The position numbers and the translations under genes are program-made. 64,000 nucleotides of DNA from an uncultured bacterium (GTDB taxonomy: Bacteria; Margulisbacteria; Termititenacia; CAZZFK01), in the NCBI GenBank assembly GCA_964653455.1, contig CAZZFK010000003.1:60819-124818 (forward strand), given 5' to 3'. The notes beneath the pieces were generated by a model. The model did not search any database, had not been told where the DNA came from, and saw nothing but the letters and a program-made list of their open reading frames with translations. The number at the start of each line of letters is the position of its first letter. The stretch's first letter is position 1. Shown piece by piece: positions 5,292-58,676 of this stretch.

Positions 5292-6169
5292 AACCTCTTG
5301 CGCGATGTGCGGCGTTTAAAAAAGGATATGATCTTCTCAAGATATGGTTCCCCGCAGGTCAGGTGAATGAAATCGCCCGTATTCTTGAGAAAAAGCTCTT
5401 TGAGCGACAGGAAGTTCTTTTGCGCTGCTTCTGCATATGCTTTGCGGAAGTTCGTATCTCTCGTATCGATGATGCGAGAAGCATCATGCTCCAGGTCCTT
5501 GATACGGAGATAGCCGAAGGAGGGTATGGTCTTTTCGAACGGATCGCCGATCAGGACCGGGATGACATCATGTTTTCGTGCCGTGATCTCGAAGGTCTTT
5601 TTATAATCGTCCGCGATGAAGTCCGAGAGTATAAAGACCACAGAACGGCGCTTGGTGATCAGGTTCAGATGTTCTAACGCGGCTTTGATATTTGTCTTTT
5701 TGTTAACCGGGGTGAAACTAATGACATCGCGTAGCAAGCGAAGTACATGTTTCCTCCCTTTTTTTGCAGGAATGAACTTCTCCACTTTGTCCGTAAAAAG
5801 CATCAGACCTGCCCGGTCATTGTTCTTGAGCGCTGTCAGGGAGAGCAGTGCCGCTATCTTTTGTGTCAGTTCTTTCTTGGTCCCGTCTTTTGTCCCCAGG
5901 TCCTGTGAGGCGCTCATATCCACCAGGATATATATATGAAGTTCACGCTCTTCCCGGAATATCTTCACGTGCGGGGTGCCGGTGCGCGCGGTCACGTTCC
6001 AGTCGATGAACTTGATATCATCGCCGACCTGATAGGGACGTACTTCCTGGAACTCTATCCCAAGGCCCCGGAACGCGGATTGATATTCTCCGGAGACCGT
6101 TGAATTGATGATACGGTTGGTCTGTATTTCGAGCTTTTTTACTTGGGCAAGTATATCTTTTGTGATCAT
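5288..6169 (-). CDS. DUF58 family protein
   Basis: GEYQSAFRGLGIEFQEVRPYQVGDDIKFIDWNVTAR, FREERE, DMSAS. Start moved to MITKDI. Confidence 0.92.
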   Translation of the reverse strand: MITKDILAQVKKLEIQTNRIINSTVSGEYQSAFRGLGIEFQEVRPYQVGDDIKFIDWNVTARTGTPHVKIFREERELHIYILVDMSASQDLGTKDGTKKELTQKIAALLSLTALKNNDRAGLMLFTDKVEKFIPAKKGRKHVLRLLRDVISFTPVNKKTNIKAALEHLNLITKRRSVVFILSDFIADDYKKTFEITARKHDVIPVLIGDPFEKTIPSFGYLRIKDLEHDASRIIDTRDTNFRKAYAEAAQKNFLSLKELFLKNTGDFIHLTCGEPYLEKIISFFKRRTSRKRF

Positions 6170-6177
6170 GGTGTTCT

Positions 6178-6283
6178 TGACCCCTCCCACCGCTTTCAGC
6201 GGTTCCCCCTCCCCAATGCCCTTACTAGCTTGCCCCGAGCAATGCCGAGGGGTATTGGGGAGGGGGCTAGGGGGTGAGGTTTG
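6178..6283. repeat. GC-rich REP-like palindromic element (family member 1)
   Basis: Stem CCCCCTCCCCAATGCCC...GGGTATTGGGGAGGGGG. Its left end GACCCCTCCCACC (6179-6191) is identical to 20653-20665. The inner 22-mer matches the 25.4 kb element at 18/22 positions. Confidence 0.75.
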
Positions 6284-7279
6284 TTACGGTACCTCGATCG
6301 TATCCAGTATCTTCTGGATAACGTCTTCAGAGGTCATATTTTCTGCTTCCGCTTCATAACTGATGATGACACGATGGCGGAGCACGTCCATGACGATCGA
6401 TTTCACATCATCTGGAGAGACGAAACCGCGGCCCTGCAGGAAGGCATGGGCCTTAGCGGCTTTGGTCAAATAGATGGAAGCGCGAGGAGAAGCTCCATAG
6501 GTGATGAGATTCTTGATGTTCAATTTATATTCTTCAGGTTCTCTGGTCGCAAGGACGATATCGAGGATATAGTCTTTGATCTTTTCATCGACATAAATAT
6601 CGTCAATGACACCTTGAACACGAATGATATCGGCAGGAGTTATGACCTTTTTGAGGTCCGCCGAATCAATGGACCGCTGAATGTCGATGATCTGTCGCTC
6701 TTCTTTACGTGAAGGATAGGATATCAAGAGCTTTAGCATGAAGCGGTCCACCTGCGCTTCGGGCAGAGGGTAGGTTCCTTCCTGTTCGATAGGGTTCTGG
6801 GTCGCAAGTACCAGGAACGGCTCGTTCAATCGATATGTCTCTTCACCCAGTGTCACCTGTTTTTCCTGCATGGCTTCAAGGAGTGCGCTCTGGACCTTGG
6901 CGGGTGCGCGATTGATCTCGTCGGCAAGTATTATATTATGGAAGACAGGCCCTTTTTTTATGGAAAAGTTCGTTGTCGCGGGGTTATAGATCATGGTCCC
7001 GATGATATCGGCAGGAAGCAAGTCGGGAGTGAACTGGATGCGTTTGAAAGAGCAATCGATGATCTGCGAAAGCGTTCTGATGATAAGCGTTTTGGCGAGA
7101 CCGGGGACCCCTTCGAGCAATATGTGACCTTTGCAGAAGAGCCCGATGAGTATCTTCTCGATGATGGTACGTTGCCCGACGATCACCTTGTTGAATTCTT
7201 TCATGACGTCAGCGATGAAGGCGGATTCTTTTTGTATGCGTGCGTTCAATTCCTGAATAGAGATGTCGTTAGTGCTCAT
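6284..7279 (-). CDS. moxR: MoxR family AAA+ ATPase
   Basis: LLEGVPGLAKT, RIQFTPDLLPAD, LADEINRAPAKVQSALLEAMQE, ATQNPIEQEGTYPLPEAQVDRF. Confidence 0.95.
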   Translation of the reverse strand: MSTNDISIQELNARIQKESAFIADVMKEFNKVIVGQRTIIEKILIGLFCKGHILLEGVPGLAKTLIIRTLSQIIDCSFKRIQFTPDLLPADIIGTMIYNPATTNFSIKKGPVFHNIILADEINRAPAKVQSALLEAMQEKQVTLGEETYRLNEPFLVLATQNPIEQEGTYPLPEAQVDRFMLKLLISYPSRKEERQIIDIQRSIDSADLKKVITPADIIRVQGVIDDIYVDEKIKDYILDIVLATREPEEYKLNIKNLITYGASPRASIYLTKAAKAHAFLQGRGFVSPDDVKSIVMDVLRHRVIISYEAEAENMTSEDVIQKILDTIEVP

Positions 7280-16622: not shown

Positions 16623-17705
16623 TTAGGCTCTTGTTCCGTACACTTTCCAGAACGTCACAATAACAGAAACGATCGGTATCGCGAGGACCATCCCCCAAAG
16701 ACCGAAGACCTCACCGCCGCACAGCAGTATCATGAAAATAACGAGCGGGGAGAAGGCGGTCGCCTTACTGAACACCTGCGGCGCGATGATGTTCGCCAGA
16801 ATGACCTGACGTATCGCAAAAAAGATCACTATTGGCATGACCAATGCCGGGGAATGCAGCCACGTGATCAGAAGGATAGGGACTATCGCGATGATCGGTC
16901 CGAACAAGGGGATGAACTCCATGAGCCCCGTGAGCACGCCGAAGATGAGCGAGAACTTAAGCCCGATAATGACCATGAAAAGGAACGTTGAGAACCCGCT
17001 AATGAACGCCAGGAACATGAGCCCTCCGAAATAATTGACGAGCTGGGTATATGCCGACGTAAGGAATTTCTTTTCACGCAGGGAAGCTTCCTGTTCCATG
17101 AATTTCTGTATCTTTTCCAGTATCGAATGGCGTTCCGAAAGAAGATAGATGCACATGATGAACGCTATCAGAAAATTAAAGAGGAAAGAAGTGATGCTCG
17201 AAGCGGACTTGATCACACCGTCGAACAGCGAGGAAAAGAACTGTCCGCTTTGGGCGACGTATTTCGACGTCAACTCGCTGAAAGAAACGTGTGTGAGGTC
17301 TTCTATGACCTTTTGTATCGAAGCGGAGTTCGTCTGGATCTCGGCAACTTTTACCGCAAATCCTTTTTCAAAGGCCGGTATCGCGCTGGAAAGGTCCATC
17401 CCCTGGGTGAGCACCTTTGGCAGGAAGAGCACGGTGAGTACAAGCATAATGGATATGCACGCCAACAGGATGAGTATCGACGCGATATGTGAATGGGTCA
17501 TCTTTTCAAGACGCGCAGCAGCGGGACGTAAGAACAAGTACAGGACGCAGGCGGTCATTGTTATGGAAAACGCGGTCGGGGCAAAGAATTTAAGCCCGAG
17601 AATAGCGATAAGAATGAAGAACCATCGACGTTTGGATATTATCAACGATACCAGTTCCTGAAACAGTTGTGAAATATTCCCTGCTGTTCTTTTTTGCTTT
17701 GCCAT
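16623..17705 (-). CDS. AI-2E family transporter
   Basis: Multi-TM protein with GLMEFIPLFGPIIA and GGEVFGLWGMVLAIP motifs. Start moved to MAKQK. Confidence 0.85.
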   Translation of the reverse strand: MAKQKRTAGNISQLFQELVSLIISKRRWFFILIAILGLKFFAPTAFSITMTACVLYLFLRPAAARLEKMTHSHIASILILLACISIMLVLTVLFLPKVLTQGMDLSSAIPAFEKGFAVKVAEIQTNSASIQKVIEDLTHVSFSELTSKYVAQSGQFFSSLFDGVIKSASSITSFLFNFLIAFIMCIYLLSERHSILEKIQKFMEQEASLREKKFLTSAYTQLVNYFGGLMFLAFISGFSTFLFMVIIGLKFSLIFGVLTGLMEFIPLFGPIIAIVPILLITWLHSPALVMPIVIFFAIRQVILANIIAPQVFSKATAFSPLVIFMILLCGGEVFGLWGMVLAIPIVSVIVTFWKVYGTRA

Positions 17706-17748
17706 GACCGTTCCTTTCTGTATCTGTAGAACGTGGGTGTCTGGGCTG

Positions 17749-18483
17749 TTACTGCAAAAGATCGATATTATTGACAAGGCCTTCTCCGATCAAGACCGCG
17801 TTCACTCCCTGAGTAATGTCCCCCCGCGTTTTGATACCGCTCTCACTGACAATGACCTTGCCTTCCGGGATCATTTTCATCAGGCGTGGCGTTGTGGTGA
17901 GGTCCATCGTGAAATCCTTCAGGTCGCGGTTATTGATGCCGATGATCGAAGCTCCTGCCGCCAGCGCTTGTTCCAATTCCTGTTCATTATGGACCTCGAC
18001 CAGTGCGCTCATGGTGAGGTCATGCGCGGTCTTCTGGAAGGTCCTCAATTGTTCGGGGGTCAGGATCGCTGCGATAAGTAATACGGCATCCGCACCGATG
18101 GCACGTGCTTCATAGATCTGCAGTTCATCGATGATGAAATCCTTGCGCAGGAGCGGAAGGGGGGATATCTGTTTGATGCGCGTCAGGTAGTCCTTGTGCC
18201 CCTGGAAGAACTGCTCGTCGGTCAGAACGGAGAGAGCTGCGGCGCCAAGGGACGTATAATCGAGGGCGATACGGACGGGATCGAAATCGTTGACGATGAT
18301 ACCGCGGGAAGGGGATGCTTTTTTCACTTCGGCGATGACGTTCACTTTGCCGGGACGTGAAATGGCCGTCTTGAAGTCACGGGTCGTGGTGCCGTCAATT
18401 TTAACGATGAGAGACTCGATGGTCTCACGAGCCTTTAGCTCTGCGACCTCGATCTTTTTTCTCTCAATGATAGTGTTCAGCAT
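17749..18483 (-). CDS. trpC: Indole-3-glycerol phosphate synthase
   Basis: IAEVKKASPSRG, LSVLTD, LRKDFIID, GINNRDL, VSESGI. Confidence 0.97.
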   Translation of the reverse strand: MLNTIIERKKIEVAELKARETIESLIVKIDGTTTRDFKTAISRPGKVNVIAEVKKASPSRGIIVNDFDPVRIALDYTSLGAAALSVLTDEQFFQGHKDYLTRIKQISPLPLLRKDFIIDELQIYEARAIGADAVLLIAAILTPEQLRTFQKTAHDLTMSALVEVHNEQELEQALAAGASIIGINNRDLKDFTMDLTTTPRLMKMIPEGKVIVSESGIKTRGDITQGVNAVLIGEGLVNNIDLLQ

Positions 18484-19496
18484 GTTTTGGAGAAAGCAAT
18501 GAGTTCTTGAAGCTTTTTAAGCGCTGCTCCATCCCGCAGTGAGCTCTTGGCGAGAACTATTCCTTCCTCAAGATCTTTCGCCCTATTTCCGGCGACTATC
18601 GCCGCTGCGGCGTTCATGACAGCGACATCGGTGCATGGACCTTCATATTTATTGTTGAGGATATTGAGCAGTATCTCTGAGTTCTGTTTCGGGTCCCCGC
18701 CTTTTATAGCGTCGAGGGTGACCTTTTTGAAGCCGAACGCTTCGGGCGTGAAACGCATCTCGGTAATGATGCCGTCCTTTAGGTGGGCGACGACGGTATC
18801 GCCGGTTATTGATATTTCATCAAGCCCGTCCGCGCCATGCACGATGAACGCGTGCTGCACCCCGAGGTTCCTAAGGACCTTGGCCATGGTGTCCACCAGT
18901 TGCGGAGAAAAAACACCCATCAGATGCCCGGTAGCGTTCGCGGGGTTCGTGAGCGGCCCCAGGATATTGAACACGGTCCTGATCCCGACCTCTTTTCTCG
19001 GGCCGATCGCATGTTTCATGGCCCCGTGGAACGCGGGTGCGAACATGAAGCCGATACCGACCTTATTTATGCATTCGGTGACCTTTTCATGGGGCATGTC
19101 GAGCTTTACGCCCAATATCTCAAGGACATCGGCACTGCCTGTTCTGCTGGTCACGGAGCGATTGCCGTGCTTGGCGATGGCGACACCGGCGCCGGCCGCG
19201 ATAAGTGCTGCAGTGGTTGATATATTGAAGGTCCCGGACCTGTCGCCGCCGGTCCCGCAGGTATCAACAAGGTTCTTGGGGGACGGAGCGATCGTGTGCG
19301 CGTGTTTCCTCATGGACTTTGCCATGCCGGTTATCTCTTCTATGGTCTCGCCCTTCATACGCAAGGCTGTGATAAAGGCGCCGATCTGCGCGGGAGTTGC
19401 AGTTCCTCCCATGATGTCATCCATCACCTCGAACGCTTCTTGTTCTGTGAGGTTGAGCCTGTCTACGACTTTCTGGAGGGCTTCACGAGTGTTCAT
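18477..19496 (-). CDS. trpD: Anthranilate phosphoribosyltransferase
   Basis: DTCGTGGD, NIST, KHGNRSVTSRTGSAD, GIRTVFNILGPLTNP, DGLDEIS. Confidence 0.97.
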   Translation of the reverse strand: MNTREALQKVVDRLNLTEQEAFEVMDDIMGGTATPAQIGAFITALRMKGETIEEITGMAKSMRKHAHTIAPSPKNLVDTCGTGGDRSGTFNISTTAALIAAGAGVAIAKHGNRSVTSRTGSADVLEILGVKLDMPHEKVTECINKVGIGFMFAPAFHGAMKHAIGPRKEVGIRTVFNILGPLTNPANATGHLMGVFSPQLVDTMAKVLRNLGVQHAFIVHGADGLDEISITGDTVVAHLKDGIITEMRFTPEAFGFKKVTLDAIKGGDPKQNSEILLNILNNKYEGPCTDVAVMNAAAAIVAGNRAKDLEEGIVLAKSSLRDGAALKKLQELIAFSKTC

Positions 19497-19544
19497 ATAT
19501 AAATATTACCATAGCCGCTGTATTAAAAAAATGGATCAGTTGCT

Positions 19545-19662
19545 GACCCCACCAACAGAGCTGCGAACCTTTAACTCGAGCTATATACCCGAACCTCCCC
19601 AGATCTGGGGAGGTTCGGGTACGTTAACAGTATTCTGCATCAATTGCTGTGGTGGTGGGGTC
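19545..19662. repeat. About 118-bp REP/MITE-like element with a central perfect 36-bp palindrome (member 2)
   Basis: Terminal IR GACCCCACCA...TGGTGGGGTC. Central TACCCGAACCTCCCCAGATCTGGGGAGGTTCGGGTA at 19586-19621 sits exactly at the midpoint. Confidence 0.8.
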
Positions 19663-19672
19663 TAAGGCAGTT

Positions 19673-20212
19673 TCAATACGCAATCTTATCTTTCGATAGC
19701 GTCCACTTCTTGAGAACGTCTGTCGCAGATGGCATAGGCTTATGTACCAGGGGTAGCTCTCTTTTATCGACAGGAAGAGCTATTTCTTTATATATGAAGC
19801 TGTCATCAAATCCGATCGAAGCCGCGTCTTTCCTCGTATTTGCGAAATATACTTTGGAAATACCTGCCCAATAAATAGCGCTCAGGCACATAGGGCAGGG
19901 CTCGCAGCTGGAATAGAGTGCCGCGCCGTTCAATTGGAACGTACCGAGATGCCGGCAGGCGTCACGTATGGCCACTATCTCTGCATGTGCGGTAGGGTCA
20001 TTGTTCTTGGTCACTCGATTGGTCCCTGTGCCTATCACAGCACCATCTTTGATGATAACTGCGCCGAAAGGTCCGCCTTGTTTTTTTGTGACATTTTCCA
20101 GGGCCATCGCTATGGCCTGTTCCATGAAATGGTGCTGATAGTCAGTATTGTGTTGCGTGTGACGTGCTTTTGAGCGTTCTGTTGCCGGGGTATCACTGTG
20201 TTCTCGGGTCAT
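19673..20212 (-). CDS. guaD: Guanine deaminase (Bacillus GuaD type, CDA fold)
   Basis: GGPFGAVI, DPTAHAEIVAIR, SCEPCPMC, GFDDSFIY, C-terminal Tyr. GGAGG RBS before MTREH. Confidence 0.8.
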   Translation of the reverse strand: MTREHSDTPATERSKARHTQHNTDYQHHFMEQAIAMALENVTKKQGGPFGAVIIKDGAVIGTGTNRVTKNNDPTAHAEIVAIRDACRHLGTFQLNGAALYSSCEPCPMCLSAIYWAGISKVYFANTRKDAASIGFDDSFIYKEIALPVDKRELPLVHKPMPSATDVLKKWTLSKDKIAY

Positions 20213-20290
20213 AAAGCCTCCGTGTGTTTGAAATACTATCATGTAGATGAGAGGGCACAAAATGAATAGTTCATACGTCTTTATGAGTAT

Positions 20291-20668
20291 ATGGAACGTT
20301 ATGGTATTACCTATGGTCAATATATTGATAAAGAAAAAATGCAGCAGGCAAAAGCATTACGAAAGACTATGACCAAAGCTGAACGTGTTTTTTGGGAACA
20401 TGTTCGAAGAAGGAGATATCCGGGATATCGGTTCAGAAGACAGCAGGTCATTGATGGCTTTATAGTTGATTTCTATTGTTCAAAGTTAAGACTTGCCATA
20501 GAAATTGATGGAGAAGTTCATAATGATAGAAAAATATATGACAGGGATCGTGATGCTATCTTGGAGCAGCATGGGATAAAAGTATTAAGGTTTTCGAATA
20601 CAGATGTCATTCATGATATTGAAAAGGTTATGTGGAAAGTATTCACCTTCAAGACCCCTCCCACCTGA
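20291..20668 (+). CDS. DUF559 (Vsr-like) endonuclease domain protein
   Basis: AKALRKTMTKAERVFW, FRRQQVIDGFIVDFYC, AIEIDGEVH, DRDRD, VLRFSN. The C-terminus (KTPPT*) reads into the adjacent palindromic element. Confidence 0.9.
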   Translation: MERYGITYGQYIDKEKMQQAKALRKTMTKAERVFWEHVRRRRYPGYRFRRQQVIDGFIVDFYCSKLRLAIEIDGEVHNDRKIYDRDRDAILEQHGIKVLRFSNTDVIHDIEKVMWKVFTFKTPPT

Positions 20669-20771
20669 AGCTTATAATAATGATATCTGCGCTACCCAAA
20701 CCTCCCCGGATCCGGGGAGGTTTGGGTACTCTAGCCGAATTGGTTAGTGCTGTATATTGTTGGAGGGGTCT
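20652..20771. repeat. About 120-bp REP/MITE-like element with a central perfect 36-bp palindrome (member 3)
   Basis: Terminal IR AGACCCCTCC...GGAGGGGTCT. Central TACCCAAACCTCCCCGGATCCGGGGAGGTTTGGGTA at 20693-20728. Confidence 0.8.
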
Positions 20772-20817
20772 GGTGAGCGAAGGTACAAGCTGTTAATTTT
20801 CATATATAATTCAATTC

Positions 20818-21495
20818 ATGCAGAATATCACCTACACCACCATCCGTTCCCGCAGACGCAGTATCGGTATCGAGATCACGATGAGCGGGGATGTCATTGT
20901 CCGTATGCCGTTACGTGCCAAAGAACAGCTTGCAGCGGAGTTTATCCGCAAAAAAAGTCCTTGGATCATCAAGACGATCGAAAAGGTCAGGACATATTCT
21001 GAAAAATATCGTCCAAAACAATTCCTTGATGGGGAAGAATTCACGTATTTGAACATGAAATATCCGTTGCGCTATGTCGAGTCAGGCGCGCCGACCCTGC
21101 AGTTCAGGGACGGCATGTTCCTGTTGAACCGTTCAAAACAAGGCAGCGCTTCCCGCCAGTTCATTTCCTGGTACCGAAAAGCCGTGCGTACTGTTCTTGA
21201 AGAAAGGCTGTTGTATTTCTCGCAACGTGCAGGTCTTCGGTACGGCCGCGTGACCATAACCGCTGCCAAGAGACGCTGGGGGTCCTGCAGTCACCGCAAT
21301 GACCTGAGTTTTTCCTGGCGTCTGGTCCTTGCCCCAATAGAGATCGTTGATTACGTCGTATTGCATGAATTGGTCCATGTCATCGAGAAGAACCATTCCC
21401 GTGACAGGTTCTGGGCGGTAGTTGCGAGATATATGCCGGACTATAAAGAACGTAGAAATTGGCTTAAGAAGAACGGAGTGTCCTTGGACCTGTAA
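20818..21495 (+). CDS. YgjP/SprT-like (DUF45, M48-annotated) metal-dependent hydrolase
   Basis: RSRRRSIGI, RRWGSCS, LSFSWRL, DYVVLHELVH (HExxH). Confidence 0.85.
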   Translation: MQNITYTTIRSRRRSIGIEITMSGDVIVRMPLRAKEQLAAEFIRKKSPWIIKTIEKVRTYSEKYRPKQFLDGEEFTYLNMKYPLRYVESGAPTLQFRDGMFLLNRSKQGSASRQFISWYRKAVRTVLEERLLYFSQRAGLRYGRVTITAAKRRWGSCSHRNDLSFSWRLVLAPIEIVDYVVLHELVHVIEKNHSRDRFWAVVARYMPDYKERRNWLKKNGVSLDL

Positions 21496-21615
21496 CTCAC
21501 CCCCAGTATAGTTTTTTCTTCATGAACACAGCAGCTATATGCTCCCCCTCTCTCAAGAGAGAGGGGGAGCGATCAATATGCATTTTAGATGAATAGCTCT
21601 GCTTGGGGGGAGTTA
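21493..21615. repeat. About 123-bp element with a central 14-bp-arm palindrome (member 4)
   Basis: Terminal IR TAACTCACCCCCA...TGGGGGGAGTTA. Central GCTCCCCCTCTCTC-AA-GAGAGAGGGGGAGC at 21541-21570. Its termini contain the stop codons of both convergent neighbours. Confidence 0.7.
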
Positions 21616-22269
21616 TTTAACTATCGATATAAGTTCATCGTATGAATCAATGATGAATTCCGGTCGTGCAGCTTCGAGCTCATTTCTGAGCCCGATACCG
21701 AACGTTACCCCGCAGGTATGGACCCCTGCCGCTTTTCCGGCCTGAATATCTACGGCCATATCTCCGACCATGAGCACATGGGCTTTATCTGTGACCTTGA
21801 GCGCTGTGATCGCTTTTATGACCGGGCAGGGCAGCGGTTTTAAACAGTCAACGTCATCGCCGCCGACGATCTCTTTGAAGTAGTGCCGAATGTTCAATTG
21901 AGCGAGCGTTCTGTCCGCGGACTTCCGGCTGCGGTTGGTGACGATCCCCATGTGCTTATCCTTGAGCCGTTCCAGCATGTCCGCGGCCCCGGGCATCAAT
22001 GTCGTTCTTTCCATGGCATGGTCGCGATAGTGCTCGGAATAAAGCAGGAGCGCAGTCTCACCATCTTTATATATTTCCGGGGGTATGGTGTTCTTTATCA
22101 GGTCGCGGACCCCGAACCCGATGAAAGGACGGACCTCGTCAAGGGGCTTTTCCGGCAAAGCGAGCGTACGGCGAACATGATTGACCGATGCAACGATCGC
22201 ACGGACAGAGTCGAGCAAGGTCCCGTCCAGGTCAAAGAAAATATACTTGAATTTTCCGGAATGCCCCAT
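21613..22269 (-). CDS. HAD-IA hydrolase, phosphoglycolate phosphatase-like
   Basis: FDLDGTLLDS, IVTN, KPLP, MVGDMAVDIQAGKAAG. Confidence 0.88.
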   Translation of the reverse strand: MGHSGKFKYIFFDLDGTLLDSVRAIVASVNHVRRTLALPEKPLDEVRPFIGFGVRDLIKNTIPPEIYKDGETALLLYSEHYRDHAMERTTLMPGAADMLERLKDKHMGIVTNRSRKSADRTLAQLNIRHYFKEIVGGDDVDCLKPLPCPVIKAITALKVTDKAHVLMVGDMAVDIQAGKAAGVHTCGVTFGIGLRNELEAARPEFIIDSYDELISIVK

Positions 22270-22961
22270 TAATCCCGACGTTTTCCGAATATGCGCAGCA
22301 GCATCAGGAACAGATTGATGAAGTCCAGGTACAGCGTGAGGGCGCCGATAATGGCCTCTTTTTTGTCCTCATCCGTCTCTTCATTGCCGATAATGTTCAA
22401 TTTCTTTATTTTCTGTGTGTCATAGGCGATGAGCCCTACGAACACCAGTACACCGATGTACGCGGTAACAAGGTTAACGATAGAGTTGTTCAGGAACATG
22501 TTGATGAACGTGGCCATAATGATGCCCAGAAGCGACATGATGCAGAGATTCCCGATACTGGTAAGATCTTTCTTGGTCGTAAAGCCATAGAAGCTCATGA
22601 GCGCGAACGTCCCTGCAGTGATGTAGAACGTCATAGCGAGCGACTCGGTCGTAAAGACAAGAAATACGGACGCGAGCGTCAGGCCGTTGAGGGCAGAGTA
22701 AGCAAGGAACGTCAGCCTTCCCGTGGTGACGCTCATTTTTTCTATCGCGATGACCAGATACGCGACCATGATGAATTCCAGAAAAAGCATGACGATGAAC
22801 AGCAGCGGATGACCGAAAATAAAATTAGCCAGAGGCAGATTGCTCGCGGTGTACATGGCTACAAGACCGGTAACGACGAGCGCTGCGGACATCCACCCGA
22901 ACACCTTCGTGATGTAATGCTGGTTCTCGATATCTGCGCGGGACAGGTTCTTGCTTGCCAT
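22269..22961 (-). CDS. Bax inhibitor-1/YccA family membrane protein
   Basis: Seven TM segments, YDTQKIK, GALTLYLDFINLFL. Confidence 0.92.
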   Translation of the reverse strand: MASKNLSRADIENQHYITKVFGWMSAALVVTGLVAMYTASNLPLANFIFGHPLLFIVMLFLEFIMVAYLVIAIEKMSVTTGRLTFLAYSALNGLTLASVFLVFTTESLAMTFYITAGTFALMSFYGFTTKKDLTSIGNLCIMSLLGIIMATFINMFLNNSIVNLVTAYIGVLVFVGLIAYDTQKIKKLNIIGNEETDEDKKEAIIGALTLYLDFINLFLMLLRIFGKRRD

Positions 22962-23029
22962 AGTGAGCCTCCTTGTTCAGATGGAAGTTATTATACAACG
23001 AATGAGGTGTGTTTTCTTGAAATATCGCT

Positions 23030-24796
23030 TCAGGCCGTCTTGTTGCCGGGAACAACATCCTGTGTCTGGTATGCTCCGGCCTCAAGTTCTTTGATGACGT
23101 CACGGACAATGACCTTCTGTGTTGAGGTCTTCGGCAACGGATCGAACGTAAGCGCGAACATGCCGATGATCTTGTATGTCGGCAGCCCGTGGTTCATCTT
23201 TTTCAGCTCTGCCTTTATCTTTTTGTACGCATCCACGGTCTTTTCGAACGCAGGCTTGATGACGCTGTATACGACCTCTTTACCGTTGACCTTTTTCCCG
23301 AAGATGACCAGGTCCTCGAACAGGTCAGATTGCATATAGTACGATTCAAGTTCTTCAGGATAGACGTTCTTGCCGGAATCCAGGACGATCACGTTCTTCT
23401 TGCGTCCGCGGATATGCAGGTCACGGTTCTTGTCCAGAAAGCCCATATCTCCCGTATCGAACCAGCCTTCATTATCGAACACCAGATCATTAGCTGCATC
23501 ATTATTGTAGTATCCGGGCATGACGGACACACCACGCAGCCATATCTCGCCGATACCTTCACGGTTGATGTTCCGTATCTGGACCTCATTGCCCGGGCAC
23601 GGTTTGGAGACACAGATCAGCTGCGGGCGTTCCAGCATGTTCCCGGCGATAGGGCCGACCGTCTCGGTCAGTCCATACCCTTCGACGACACACAGCCCCA
23701 TGTTCCGATAGTACACGCCGGTACGCAAACGGAGACGAGCGCCGCCGCTCAGGAAGAACTTGAATTCCTTGCCGAACACGGCACGGACCGGCGCGCATAC
23801 CTTTCGCACAAGGAACCCGAGCCCGATATGGTGAAGGGACGGTGCGTTCTCGACGATGAACGTGAACAGATTGTATTTGAACGTCGATTCTTCTTTTATT
23901 TTTTTTATGATCTTGTCCAGGAATATCTCCAATATTTGAGGGACGACAGGGAACATATGTATATTGGCCGTCTTGAGCGTGTTCAGCAGATCAGAACTTT
24001 TGAACGAGGTCTGGAACACGATACGTAATCCGCCGCAGAAAGGGGCCATGAACGTCGTCGTGAACCCGTACACATGATACAGGGGAAGAAGGCCGAGTAC
24101 GTTCATCGGTGTGCCTCGATACACGTTCGTGAGCACTCCGATACCGGTCTTGTAGATGTTCGCGTGGGTCAACTGGACGACCTTCGGGACGGCGGTCGTG
24201 CCTGAGGTATAGATAAGGGAGGCGATAGTGGTGTCCGGGACCTGTACGGGGGTGAAAGATCCGTTGTCTCCCATATTGACCGAGAGGCCGATGTCATATT
24301 TTTTAACGCCGGGGAACGTATACTCGAAAGCAGAGGACATGAAAATAGCTTTTGCATTGACACCGGAAAGCATCGGTCCGTAGAAAGACTCTCTTAGATT
24401 GAAGTCGAGCACGAGCGCTGTGGCACCGATACTGGTGATCGCCATATAGGTGATGCACCACTCCTCCGAATTATGAGCGAGAATGGCGATGACATCGTCC
24501 TTTTTGAAACCTTCGCTCAGCAGGAACGCGGCGCGTGAACGAACGAGCGGTAATACCTGGGCATAGGTCAAATTCTTGTTGGCAAAAAGCACTAACGCAC
24601 CGTATTTATTGCATATGTGTTCATAGAGTTGATACAGGTCGTGCACCCCTTCAGGGAGCAACGGTTCGAGAGGTATCTCGCTCGCACAGTACGTATTGCG
24701 GCGGAACCTGTTCGGGGTATCAATAAAAAGTCCTCTGAAATTCCTTAAGGAACGGACGAATCGTATCTGAAAACGGGATAATCTTTTTCTTCTCAT
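23030..24796 (-). CDS. AMP-binding protein (long-chain acyl-CoA synthetase-like)
   Basis: YTSGTTAVPK, EGYGLTET, WFDTGD, RGRKKNVIVLDSGKNVYPEELE. Confidence 0.88.
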   Translation of the reverse strand: MRRKRLSRFQIRFVRSLRNFRGLFIDTPNRFRRNTYCASEIPLEPLLPEGVHDLYQLYEHICNKYGALVLFANKNLTYAQVLPLVRSRAAFLLSEGFKKDDVIAILAHNSEEWCITYMAITSIGATALVLDFNLRESFYGPMLSGVNAKAIFMSSAFEYTFPGVKKYDIGLSVNMGDNGSFTPVQVPDTTIASLIYTSGTTAVPKVVQLTHANIYKTGIGVLTNVYRGTPMNVLGLLPLYHVYGFTTTFMAPFCGGLRIVFQTSFKSSDLLNTLKTANIHMFPVVPQILEIFLDKIIKKIKEESTFKYNLFTFIVENAPSLHHIGLGFLVRKVCAPVRAVFGKEFKFFLSGGARLRLRTGVYYRNMGLCVVEGYGLTETVGPIAGNMLERPQLICVSKPCPGNEVQIRNINREGIGEIWLRGVSVMPGYYNNDAANDLVFDNEGWFDTGDMGFLDKNRDLHIRGRKKNVIVLDSGKNVYPEELESYYMQSDLFEDLVIFGKKVNGKEVVYSVIKPAFEKTVDAYKKIKAELKKMNHGLPTYKIIGMFALTFDPLPKTSTQKVIVRDVIKELEAGAYQTQDVVPGNKTA

Positions 24797-24847
24797 GTAG
24801 CGGCAATTTCCTCAGACGTATTTGACCTTAATTGTACGACTTTACTG

Positions 24848-25411
24848 TCACAGTGCAATGAAGTTCTTGAGAAGTGTCAACCCATGCTCCGTCAGTATCG
24901 ATTCAGGATGGAATTGAACTCCTTCGACAGGAAATTCCTTATGCCGCAGGCCCATGATCTCGCCTGAATCCGTTTCTGCCGATATTTCCAGACAATCGGG
25001 AAGGCTCTTTCGTTCAACGATCAGCGAGTGATAGCGGGTCGCGGTAAAAGGGGAGGGGATGTCCTTAAAAATGGTCCGACCGTCATGTTTTATCTCAGAG
25101 GTTTTTCCATGCATGAGATACGGGGCACGGATGACCTTTCCTCCGAACACTTCTCCGATAGCCTGATGCCCGAGACAGACCCCGAACAGGGGGACCTTTC
25201 CGGCAAAATACTTCATGACACTCTTGCTGATACCTGCCTGTTGCGGTGTCCCTGGTCCCGGGGAAATGACGATGTGCGAGGGTTTGAGCGCTTCGATCTT
25301 TTCACAGGTGATCGCATCGTTCCGATAGACCTCGACCTCCTGGCCGAGCATGCCGAAATACTGTACCAGGTTGTACGTGAACGAATCATAGTTATCTATC
25401 ATTACTATCAT
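24848..25411 (-). CDS. trpG: Anthranilate synthase component II (glutamine amidotransferase)
   Basis: [34 protein letters not shown]. Confidence 0.95.
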
Positions 25412-25422
25412 GATCGTACTCC

Positions 25423-25501
25423 TGAACCCCTCCCCGAACCCCTCCCTGGCCTGCCCCGAGCATAGTCGAGGGGATCTGGGGAGGGGCCGAGGGTGGGGTC
25501 A
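25423..25501. repeat. GC-rich REP-like element between trpE and trpG (member 5)
   Basis: Ends TGAACCCC...GGGGTCA. Contains GATCTGGGGAGG shared with member 2 and the CCCCGAGCATAGTCGAGGGG insert shared with member 1. Confidence 0.7.
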
Positions 25502-25509
25502 TGACGGGC

Positions 25510-26913
25510 TTATCCCAAGCACTTGAGCATTGCCATCGCTTTATTGACCGATTCCTCATATTCCTTTGACGGGTCAGAATCCGCAACGATACCGGCCCCG
25601 GCCTGAACATGTGCCTGGCCGTCCTTTACGACGATGGTCCTGATGGCGATACAGGTGTCCATATTGCCTGAAAAATCAAAATAACCGACTGATCCGGCGT
25701 ACATGCCCCGGCGTGTGTTCTCCAGTTCATCGATGATCTCCATGGCCCGGACCTTCGGCGCTCCACTGACCGTACCCGCCGGGAATGTGGCCCGCAGCAG
25801 GTCAAAAGCATCTTTATCCTTCTGCAGCTCGCCTTCAACGTTGGAAACGATGTGCATCACGTGTGAATAGCGTTCGATGATCATCTGCTCTGTGGGTTTA
25901 ACGCTCCCTGGTCTGCAGACACGACCCAGGTCATTTCGGCCAAGGTCCACCAGCATGATGTGTTCGGCCCGTTCTTTTTGGTCGGAGAGCAGTTCTGCTG
26001 CGAGCTTTTGATCGGCATCGTTGGTCTTCCCTCGGGGACGCGTGCCGGCAATAGGCCGTACCGTCGCTGTTCTGTTCTCAAGCCGTACAAGTATCTCGGG
26101 GGACGAACCGATGACGGTGGTCTTCCCGAATTTGAGATAGAACATATAGGGTGACGGGTTCACGCAACGCAGGCGCCTGTAGATCTCAAAAGCATCACCT
26201 TTGAATTTTTTAGAGAATCGTTGTGACGGCACGACCTGGAAAATGTCACCCGCCCTGATGTATTCCTTGGCCTTATCCACGACATGTTCGAATTCTTCAC
26301 GTGAGAAGTTGGACGAGATCCCTTCAACGGGAGCCTGTTGTTCCAGGTCAATGAGGTTCTGTCGGGAAAGCGGTTCTTGCAGCTTCTTGATCAATGCCGT
26401 TATTTTCTTCTTGGCATCACGATAAGCCTTTTTCGGATCACGACCGACCCGGGCATTTGAGAGCACAATGATACGATGTTTGACGTGGTCGAACGCCAGG
26501 AGCGTATCGGTCAGCAGGAATTGGGCCAGCGGAAGCTTGAGCTCGTCCGGGTTCTTGTCCGGGATGGCCTCGATGCAACGTATGCTGTCGTAACTGAAAT
26601 AGCCGACAGCACCGCCATGAAATGGTGGCACCCCTTCATACGTCACCGGCTTGAACTTCTTCATGATCTTTTGCAGTTCCCTGAACGGGTCCTTTTTGCC
26701 GGTGAATTTCAGGAACGGTTCGCTGCCGATGAAGGAATAACGGGCGATGTTCTCGCCGTTCTCCACGCTCTCGAGCAGAAAAGAATCCTCCGTCTCGATC
26801 TTCAGATATGCGGATACGGGCGTTTCAAGATCAGCGACGATCTCGGTATAGACCGGGATGAGGTTCCCTTTTTTGGACAATGCGATGAACTCGGCTTCTG
26901 ACGGATAGAACAT
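25510..26913 (-). CDS. trpE: Anthranilate synthase component I
   Basis: FLLESVE, GDIFQVVPS, NPSPYM, SPE, RPIAGTRPRG, EHIMLVDLGRND, GTVSGAPK, QAGAGIVADS. Confidence 0.96.
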   Translation of the reverse strand: MFYPSEAEFIALSKKGNLIPVYTEIVADLETPVSAYLKIETEDSFLLESVENGENIARYSFIGSEPFLKFTGKKDPFRELQKIMKKFKPVTYEGVPPFHGGAVGYFSYDSIRCIEAIPDKNPDELKLPLAQFLLTDTLLAFDHVKHRIIVLSNARVGRDPKKAYRDAKKKITALIKKLQEPLSRQNLIDLEQQAPVEGISSNFSREEFEHVVDKAKEYIRAGDIFQVVPSQRFSKKFKGDAFEIYRRLRCVNPSPYMFYLKFGKTTVIGSSPEILVRLENRTATVRPIAGTRPRGKTNDADQKLAAELLSDQKERAEHIMLVDLGRNDLGRVCRPGSVKPTEQMIIERYSHVMHIVSNVEGELQKDKDAFDLLRATFPAGTVSGAPKVRAMEIIDELENTRRGMYAGSVGYFDFSGNMDTCIAIRTIVVKDGQAHVQAGAGIVADSDPSKEYEESVNKAMAMLKCLG

Positions 26914-58596: not shown

Positions 58597-58602
58597 ATCC
58601 AG

Positions 58603-58660
58603 TGACGAATTTCGAATGACGAAGGTCGAATATTCGCCATTCGAAGTTCGGTATTCGACA
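58603..58660. repeat. Heptamer-built palindrome between ybaB and recR
   Basis: TGACGAA TTTCGAA TGACGAA GGTCGAA - TA - TTCGCCA TTCGAAG TTCGGTA TTCGACA. Confidence 0.8.
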
Positions 58661-58676
58661 TTGAGAAGGTTTGATA

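Follow-up and report, generated by a model that had tools for sequence, protein, structure and literature searches.

A link between YcjD-like DUF559 nuclease genes and C/G-rich hairpin repeats, with a length-symmetric variant of BoxC/PIT/TM repeats in a Margulisbacteria locus

Known since the 1990s, C/G-rich hairpin repeats of the BoxC, PIT (potential intrastrand triplex) or TM kind are found in hundreds of genomes and have been linked to genome instability; DUF559 is a very large protein family. Here we report that genes of a YcjD-like DUF559 clade lie beside such repeats across metagenomes, and we describe a locus in which the repeats take a length-symmetric form of about 120 bp. The locus belongs to a 64,000-nucleotide stretch from an uncultured bacterium of the Margulisbacteria (assembly GCA_964653455.1, contig CAZZFK010000003.1, positions 60,819 to 124,818), which we call the window and whose first letter is position 1. 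A prediction made earlier from this DNA alone (the original prediction) placed three symmetric palindromic elements around a DUF559 gene and compared them with the repetitive extragenic palindromic (REP) sequences and their REP-associated tyrosine transposases (RAYT).

BoxC, PIT and TM(ECO) repeats were treated by Bergler 1992, Bachellier 1999 and Hoyne 2000, whom Holder et al. 2015 (PMC4666352) cite. That survey gives the TMECO consensus as CCCTCNCCC N3-6 GGGNGAGGG N3 GGGNGAGGG, and the loops of the hairpin and ahead of the third block measure 1-6 nt in one definition (ITxF) and 0-10 nt in another (Hoyne). The authors describe TM loci as hot spots of rearrangement, and around those E. coli TMECO sites that they examined they came upon no genes related to mobility (PMC4666352). 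Earlier work cited there gave no promoter or terminator activity for PIT elements.

The three elements of the original prediction, for which no strand is assigned, are present with their terminal inverted repeats. E1 (19545-19662, 118 bp) has the arms GACCCCACCAACAGAGC and GCTGTGGTGGTGGGGTC, complementary at 15 of 17 positions; E2 (20652-20771, 120 bp) has AGACCCCTCCCAC and GTTGGAGGGGTCT (12 of 13); and E3 (21493-21615, 123 bp) has TAACTCACCCCCAG and CTTGGGGGGAGTTA (12 of 14). A perfect palindrome had been claimed for the midpoint of each. It exists in E1 (TACCCGAACCTCCCCAGATCTGGGGAGGTTCGGGTA, 36 bp at 19586-19621) and E2 (TACCCAAACCTCCCCGGATCCGGGGAGGTTTGGGTA, 36 bp at 20693-20728) but not in E3, where the centre (21541-21570) consists of two perfect 14-nt arms with AA between them. 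The two 36-bp palindromes differ at four positions, all compensatory as the prediction had it, namely two pairs (G/A with C/T and A/G with T/C). Their core pattern occurs twice in the window against 0.02 occurrences expected, and E3 has the string AGCTCTG.TTGG.GGGG in common with E1.

Flank, core and flank measure 41/36/41 nt in E1, 41/36/43 in E2 and 48/30/45 in E3. The elements are thus symmetric in length, and it is to length that their claimed symmetry is confined: the left and right spacers (28-34 nt) were no more complementary than shuffled sequences (p 0.15-0.95), and a decayed full-length palindrome was rejected as their origin. In E1 each spacer is 28 nt long beyond the 13-nt outer arm, or 24 nt beyond the full 17-nt arms. 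Between copies, identity reached 82% over a 49-nt stretch across the core palindrome; only arms and core are common and the spacers are unrelated, so that spacer length is conserved and spacer sequence is not. Folded as RNA, either strand was far more stable than shuffled sequences (z = -8.8 for E1, -7.1 for E2 and -7.3 for E3). An Rfam search of positions 17000-24000 gave no known RNA family. No T-run follows any of the elements, and intrinsic terminators, which would carry such a tail, were therefore ruled out.

An inverted-repeat scan of the whole window added two members that the original family of three had missed, again without an assigned strand. In element A (6179-6281) the left end, GACCCCTCCCAC, matches the left arm of E2 at 12 of 13 bases from the second base of E2 on; the hairpin CCCCCTCCCC...GGGGAGGGGG, with a 28-nt insert in its loop, is followed by CTA and the tail GGGGGTGAGGT. 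Element B (25424-25500, between trpE and trpG) is a double-tailed, TM-like unit, CCCCTCCCC GAA CCCCTCCC, a 31-nt loop, then GGGGAGGGG CCGA GGGTGGGGTC; the inner core of this loop is the same as in A. The ends of both match the family (GACCCCTCCC... / ...GGGTGGGGTC). All five copies in the 64 kb lie at the 3' ends of genes or between co-directional genes, and three gene stops overlap element ends. The top match of the same scan was an imperfect palindrome with 36-nt arms at 58600-58663, built of CGAA/TTCG heptamer units and unrelated to the C/G family.

All five elements resemble BoxC/PIT/TM repeats in carrying C-block(s), a C/G hairpin and G-block(s) in that order, here in a double, palindromic form. 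Their words are alike as well (GGGGAGG, GGGTGGGGTC), as are the G-rich tail ending in GGTC (GGGGTC here) and the intergenic site, and A and B have 3-4-nt tail loops as in TMECO. E1-E3 differ from the described repeats in being palindromic, with a tail on both strands and a length of 118-123 bp. The loop rule is also broken, since E1-E3 combine a hairpin loop of 2-6 nt with 28-34 nt before the tail, and A and B carry their 28-31-nt insert in the hairpin loop. In the described repeats the third block mirrors the purine arm, with G.G:C and A/T.A:T as compatible triads. When the third block was read directly against the purine arm, E1 and E2 were triplex-compatible at 7 of 7 positions (GGGGAGG against reversed GGGGTGG and GGGGAGG, respectively; chance about 1/7 each). 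With block order and words kept but the loop rule broken, E1-E3, A and B are variants rather than strict members. Judged by sequence, they are a lineage-specific, length-symmetric, long-spacer variant of the BoxC/PIT/TM kind of C/G-rich hairpin repeat.

Selection on hairpin structure, which the original prediction had read from the two palindromes, is supported by a related locus. Behind the DUF559 gene of a relative (L004, 491-609) lies an element orthologous to E2. Its outer arm is altered by one compensated pair, its central stem has changed from TACCCAAA/TTTGGGTA in the window to GCTTTT/AAAAGC, the core CCTCCCC-AGATCT-GGGGAGG is unchanged, and the geometry is kept at 43/32/43. Its third block was triplex-compatible with the purine arm at 11 of 12 positions (permutation p 0.01). 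RNAalifold on E1, E2, E3 and this element returned an outer and a central stem, with double (compensatory) changes at 14 of 32 pairs. These comparisons support the view that the elements are a family under structural constraint.

The DUF559 protein of the window (20291-20668, plus strand, 125 aa) is a YcjD-like member of PF04480 (E 3e-35; 120.8 bits against a gathering cut-off of 20.6) with a Vsr fold. It is encoded by a free-standing gene and contains the DUF559/MTES_1575 domain only. The motif E71-x-D73-G-x-x-H77...D84 is well kept: in an alignment of 25 homologues E71, D73 and D84 are invariant and H77 nearly so, and E.DG..H is found in 61 of 63 metagenome relatives. The protein is of the same family and size as E. 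coli YcjD (b1289; 39% identity over 103 residues) and the Neisseria gonorrhoeae DUF559 protein of PDB 3hrl (E 2e-18). Its stop codon, TGA at 20666-20668, is inside the left arm of E2, not in E3 where the original prediction had put it, and the arm encodes the last four codons and the stop (TPPT*). Several of the 25 homologues end in proline-rich tails, which is what reading frames that continue into C-rich arms should produce.

To see how DUF559 genes and hairpin repeats are placed elsewhere, we fetched 80 metagenome loci encoding DUF559 relatives for analysis of their flanks, using a strict hairpin detector (perfect stem of at least 7 bp, loop of 2-10 nt, C-rich pyrimidine 5' arm). Forty hairpins fell in the 11.6 kb around the stop codons and 42 in the 9.6 kb before the starts, whereas other parts of these contigs, 184 kb in all, held 14; the densities were 3.5 per kb after the stop, 4.4 per kb before the start and 0.08 per kb elsewhere. 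A hairpin was present in 69 of 115 intergenic segments adjoining DUF559 (60%) and in 4 of the 95 that lay elsewhere on those contigs (4%), an odds ratio of 34 (p 2e-19), so that the predicted enrichment near DUF559 genes was found. The association was present in 38 of 53 clusters at 70% identity, and hairpins flanked the gene in 8 of 8 clusters at 50%. Our findings show that the association between this DUF559 clade and C/G hairpin repeats is strong and specific across metagenomes.

Most of the flanking hairpins were accompanied by a triplex-compatible tail: within 8 nt of 58 of the 82 there was such a third block, typically N3 followed by GGGGTGGGGT. At the 46 loci for which both flanks could be read, the same repeat stood on the two sides in direct orientation in 12 and inverted in 10 (sets that may overlap), compared with about 1% of cross-locus controls. 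A frequent layout was left arm and first hairpin, then DUF559, then left arm, hairpins and right arm (GGGG..AGGTC). Direct repeats of this sort, with a partial copy upstream and a complete element downstream, were seen in many loci (among them L152, L139 and L172). The closest homologues of the window protein (L199, 64%; L200, 54%; L201, 60%) are flanked by a CCTCCCC/GGGGAGG hairpin and a GGGTGGGGTC tail, which are the core and arm words of E1 and E2 (with the GG(T/A)GGGGTC end), arranged there as canonical hairpin, N3-5 and tail. At one further locus (L100, 4268-6398) the frame that encodes the DUF559 domain (6081-6398) is free of stops from about 1.8 kb upstream on and takes in a TM-type hairpin at 5659; the arrangement may represent a cassette placed in frame within a larger gene.

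In E. coli K-12 the stop codon of ycjD falls within a degenerate C/G hairpin; next come a duplicate of part of the gene's own 3' end and a canonical BoxC. Unlike the window elements, the repeat at ycjD has the compact TMECO form of 37-45 nt. In about 2080 of the 5426 complete E. coli genomes compared, collinearity with the fabI-ycjD-sapF region of K-12 (L197, 1351040-1351830) breaks off at query position 214, just before BoxC, and O157:H7 (L198) has a TetR/RND efflux block after fabI.

A scan of genome contigs with the core CCTCCCCNGATCNGGGGAGG, a pattern that is unspecific, returned at least 109 loci, mostly in high-GC genomes and with the window's own genome not among them; the hairpin word is thus widespread. 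In many Streptomyces (L007, L018, L025, L033, L036, L051, L062, L064, L066, L080, L082, L083 and others) an CCTCCCCCGATCGGGGGAGG hairpin stands in a conserved context (…catcgcgg.aaggcgggag… hairpin …ccggtcatactgg…gatcatgatc…) that looks like a separate conserved intergenic element. In the Sphingomonadales metagenome-assembled genome mag.22f, at least five contigs (L010, L013, L016, L074, L084) carry near-identical copies of CCCCCACCCAAC-CCCTCCCCCGATCGGGGGAGGG, a TM unit of tail, N3 and hairpin that also occurs on L091 and L093. There was no DUF559 gene within 8 kb of any of these copies.

By Pfam and NCBIfam, the gene order around the elements of the window is trpC(-), trpD(-, 18477-19496), E1, a deaminase (-, 19673-20212), DUF559(+), E2, a YgjP-like metallopeptidase (+, 20818-21495) and E3, followed by a HAD-family phosphatase (-, 21613-22269), Bax1-I(-), an acyl-CoA ligase (-), trpG(-), element B and trpE(-). 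The deaminase, labelled guaD in the original prediction, is a TadA/GuaD-like protein of the cytidine deaminase (CDA) fold (dCMP_cyt_deam_1) whose best NCBIfam match, TadA, is below cut-off. E1 and E2, not E2 and E3 as had been stated, bracket the deaminase and DUF559 genes; E2 and E3 bracket the YgjP-like gene. The convergent YgjP-like and HAD genes have their stops in the two ends of E3, the TAA of the former being its first three bases and that of the latter, on the minus strand, its last three. On the minus-strand transcript, E1 lies 10 nt beyond the deaminase stop and 48 nt ahead of the start of trpD. Overlapping the trpD-proximal end of E1 is a terminator-like hairpin on the same strand (19533-19549, GGGTCAG CAA CTGATCC, then T7), which could end the deaminase transcript just before trpD. 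The trp operon itself is split (17749-26913): between trpE-B-trpG and trpD-trpC lies a 5.3-kb block with the acyl-CoA ligase, Bax1-I, HAD, YgjP-like, DUF559 and deaminase genes, and E1 is at its trpD border.

Identical copies of the DUF559 protein came only from short Logan contigs belonging to this strain. Logan assemblies (L001, L002) break exactly inside the 36-bp palindromes and leave separate 36-nt unitigs, so that the flanking palindromes may, through their effect on assembly, explain in part why contigs around DUF559 genes are short. A relative (L003/L004; trpD 75%, DUF559 71% and YgjP 55% identity) has the order trpD, 61 nt, DUF559, 118-bp element, YgjP, with the DUF559 stop again in the left arm. 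In L003 these 61 nt separate the starts of trpD and DUF559, with neither E1 nor the deaminase between them, and this spacer aligns with the window's deaminase-DUF559 spacer. DUF559 and E2 are therefore ancestral between trpD and the YgjP-like gene, and the deaminase with E1 is a separate indel with only one element as its border. On this synteny and spacer alignment a composite transposon was rejected, and the suggested role of the deaminase as cargo is not supported. In a second relative (L195; YgjP 56%, Bax1-I 65%) YgjP is followed after 38 nt by Bax1-I, with no E3, HAD or DUF559. Gene-content differences among relatives thus fall exactly at elements, in line with the published link between TM repeats and rearrangement (PMC4666352).

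How does the window compare with REP/RAYT systems (REPtrons)? The likeness lies in short palindromic repeats that are dispersed and mostly solo and, in the DUF559 family at large, in a nuclease gene flanked by its own repeat. Membership is not supported: DUF559 is a Vsr-fold nuclease of the PD-(D/E)XK type and not an IS200/IS605-like HUH/Y1 transposase, the window elements have no GTAG head, and the window gene, like that of L003/L004, has an element directly on its 3' side only (E2), rather than inverted copies on both sides, E1 lying beyond the deaminase.

We hypothesize that the DUF559 nuclease recognizes the folded or distorted repeat (a hairpin, a cruciform, or a hairpin plus G-tail) and nicks it there. 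Repair of the nick would copy the repeat to other repeat copies, homogenizing them, and in many genomes would spread the gene-plus-repeat cassette too. Indels would also become likelier at repeat sites, as in the differences from relatives at deaminase plus E1 and at HAD plus E3. We infer such an action from the conserved Vsr-type active site and from a fold that includes a homing endonuclease (PMC3239194). We hold this reading tentatively, at a little short of an even chance.

Several points weigh against it. The association and the structural conservation are observed, whereas binding and cutting of the repeats by DUF559 are inferred, and we know of no Vsr-fold enzyme that acts as a transposase. 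Only one DUF559 gene occurs in the 64 kb, and four of the five elements are solo. Seen from the element side the link is weak: among the 109 core loci listed in other genomes, DUF559 lay within 8 kb at two, at one of them immediately adjacent, as expected if solo copies greatly outnumber the gene. The long spacing before the tail departs from the TM loop rule, and in E3 the third block matched the purine arm at 5 of 13 positions, with no mirror relation. Since arms and core alone are common to the copies, there is no sign of recent copying, and no consistent target-site duplication was found at the element ends. DUF559 and E2 have been syntenic since divergence to 71-75% protein identity. Nor did empty sites appear within the population: four wastewater runs containing the strain gave no element-skipping joint among their assembled contigs, from which rare variants are dropped. 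Taken together, the diverged copies, missing duplications, old synteny and lack of population variants count against recent activity here, and by the synteny the DUF559-E2 pair of this lineage is old, vertically inherited and not recently mobile.

A second explanation, which we consider rather unlikely, is that the repeats spread by other means and that DUF559 is a small selfish cassette of the homing type that uses them as landing sites. It would account for DUF559 genes in or beside repeats, often with a duplicated part of the repeat as flank; in the window the cassette would be an old, possibly domesticated, insertion next to E2. The direct-repeat loci described above suit this explanation, as deletion between the repeats would restore a solo element, and so does the great excess of solo over gene-linked elements. 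The characterized relatives of the fold include I-Bth0305I, a selfish homing endonuclease of the EDxHD or Vsr-like type (PMC3239194), with which the window protein shares the catalytic fold and the E-D-H-D residue set. EDxHD homing enzymes, however, reside in introns or inteins, carry N-terminal NUMOD/helix-turn-helix modules and have long ordinary duplex targets, whereas the window gene is a free-standing 125-aa domain without extra DNA-binding domains and adjoins structured repeats. In addition, no site was met here in both an occupied and an empty form, the DUF559 gene has no upstream repeat either in the window or in L003, and the origin of the solo repeats is left unexplained.

It is less probable still, and in our view unlikely, that genes and repeats have no functional link. 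The elements would then be structural 3'-end or intercistronic repeats acting at the RNA or DNA level, as mRNA stabilizers, RNase targets, or nucleoid-protein or gyrase sites, roles proposed for REP sequences and bacterial interspersed mosaic elements (BIME), and they would build up in intergenic spots prone to recombination, which small, horizontally transferred genes, DUF559 among them, tend to enter as well. The position of all five elements at or between gene ends, with three stops overlapping them, is compatible with such roles. The published description of TM loci as rearrangement hot spots agrees with this explanation, as do the reported lack of mobility genes at the E. coli TMECO sites examined (PMC4666352) and the splitting of the trp operon by a block with E1 at its border. 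Shared hot spots alone would hardly account for the odds ratio of 34 relative to other intergenic DNA of those contigs, or for the same repeat on both sides of a gene, and the link recurs in 38 of 53 and in 8 of 8 clusters at the two identity levels and in E. coli. The elements lack the T-tails of intrinsic terminators, and PIT elements had neither promoter nor terminator activity in the work cited in PMC4666352.

ERIC/IRU and Correia-type units are, like E1-E3, imperfect palindromes of about 120 bp with terminal inverted repeats in transcribed intergenic regions; copies within those families are alike over their full length, and Correia units have TA duplications, unlike E1-E3, in which only arms and core are conserved and no duplication is seen. 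That the elements are miniature inverted-repeat transposable elements which a conventional transposase or a RAYT from another part of the genome moves in trans, with DUF559 irrelevant, is very improbable: the terminal inverted repeats, the ERIC/Correia-like length and several copies in 64 kb agree with it, but consistent target-site duplications are missing, the spacers are unrelated between copies and between halves, and no transposase adjoins any copy in the window.

The reading in which DUF559 acts on the repeats has a wider form. YcjD-like DUF559 nucleases could be the protein partners that the BoxC/PIT/TM 'triplex' repeats have long lacked, which would give bacteria a second partnership of nuclease and repeat; we regard this as possible but doubtful. 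If it holds, the partnership would parallel REP/RAYT with a Vsr-fold enzyme, one that recognizes folded DNA, in the place of the RAYT, and the 120-bp symmetric elements of the Margulisbacteria type would be a variant whose two tails and single hairpin are kept at fixed distances to suit an enzyme dimer. We found no precedent in the literature searched, which did not extend to subscription journals, for a statistically strong, cross-phylum link of DUF559 with BoxC/PIT/TM repeats, nor any paper that connects DUF559 to palindromic, REP or triplex repeats. The window adds to this link an architectural variant, whose geometry is conserved while its spacers are free in sequence, and gene-content differences between relatives located exactly at the elements. 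The link merges two puzzles into one, namely whether YcjD or the window protein binds or nicks the neighbouring repeat, and makes DUF559 a testable candidate for the partner enzyme of C/G hairpin repeats.

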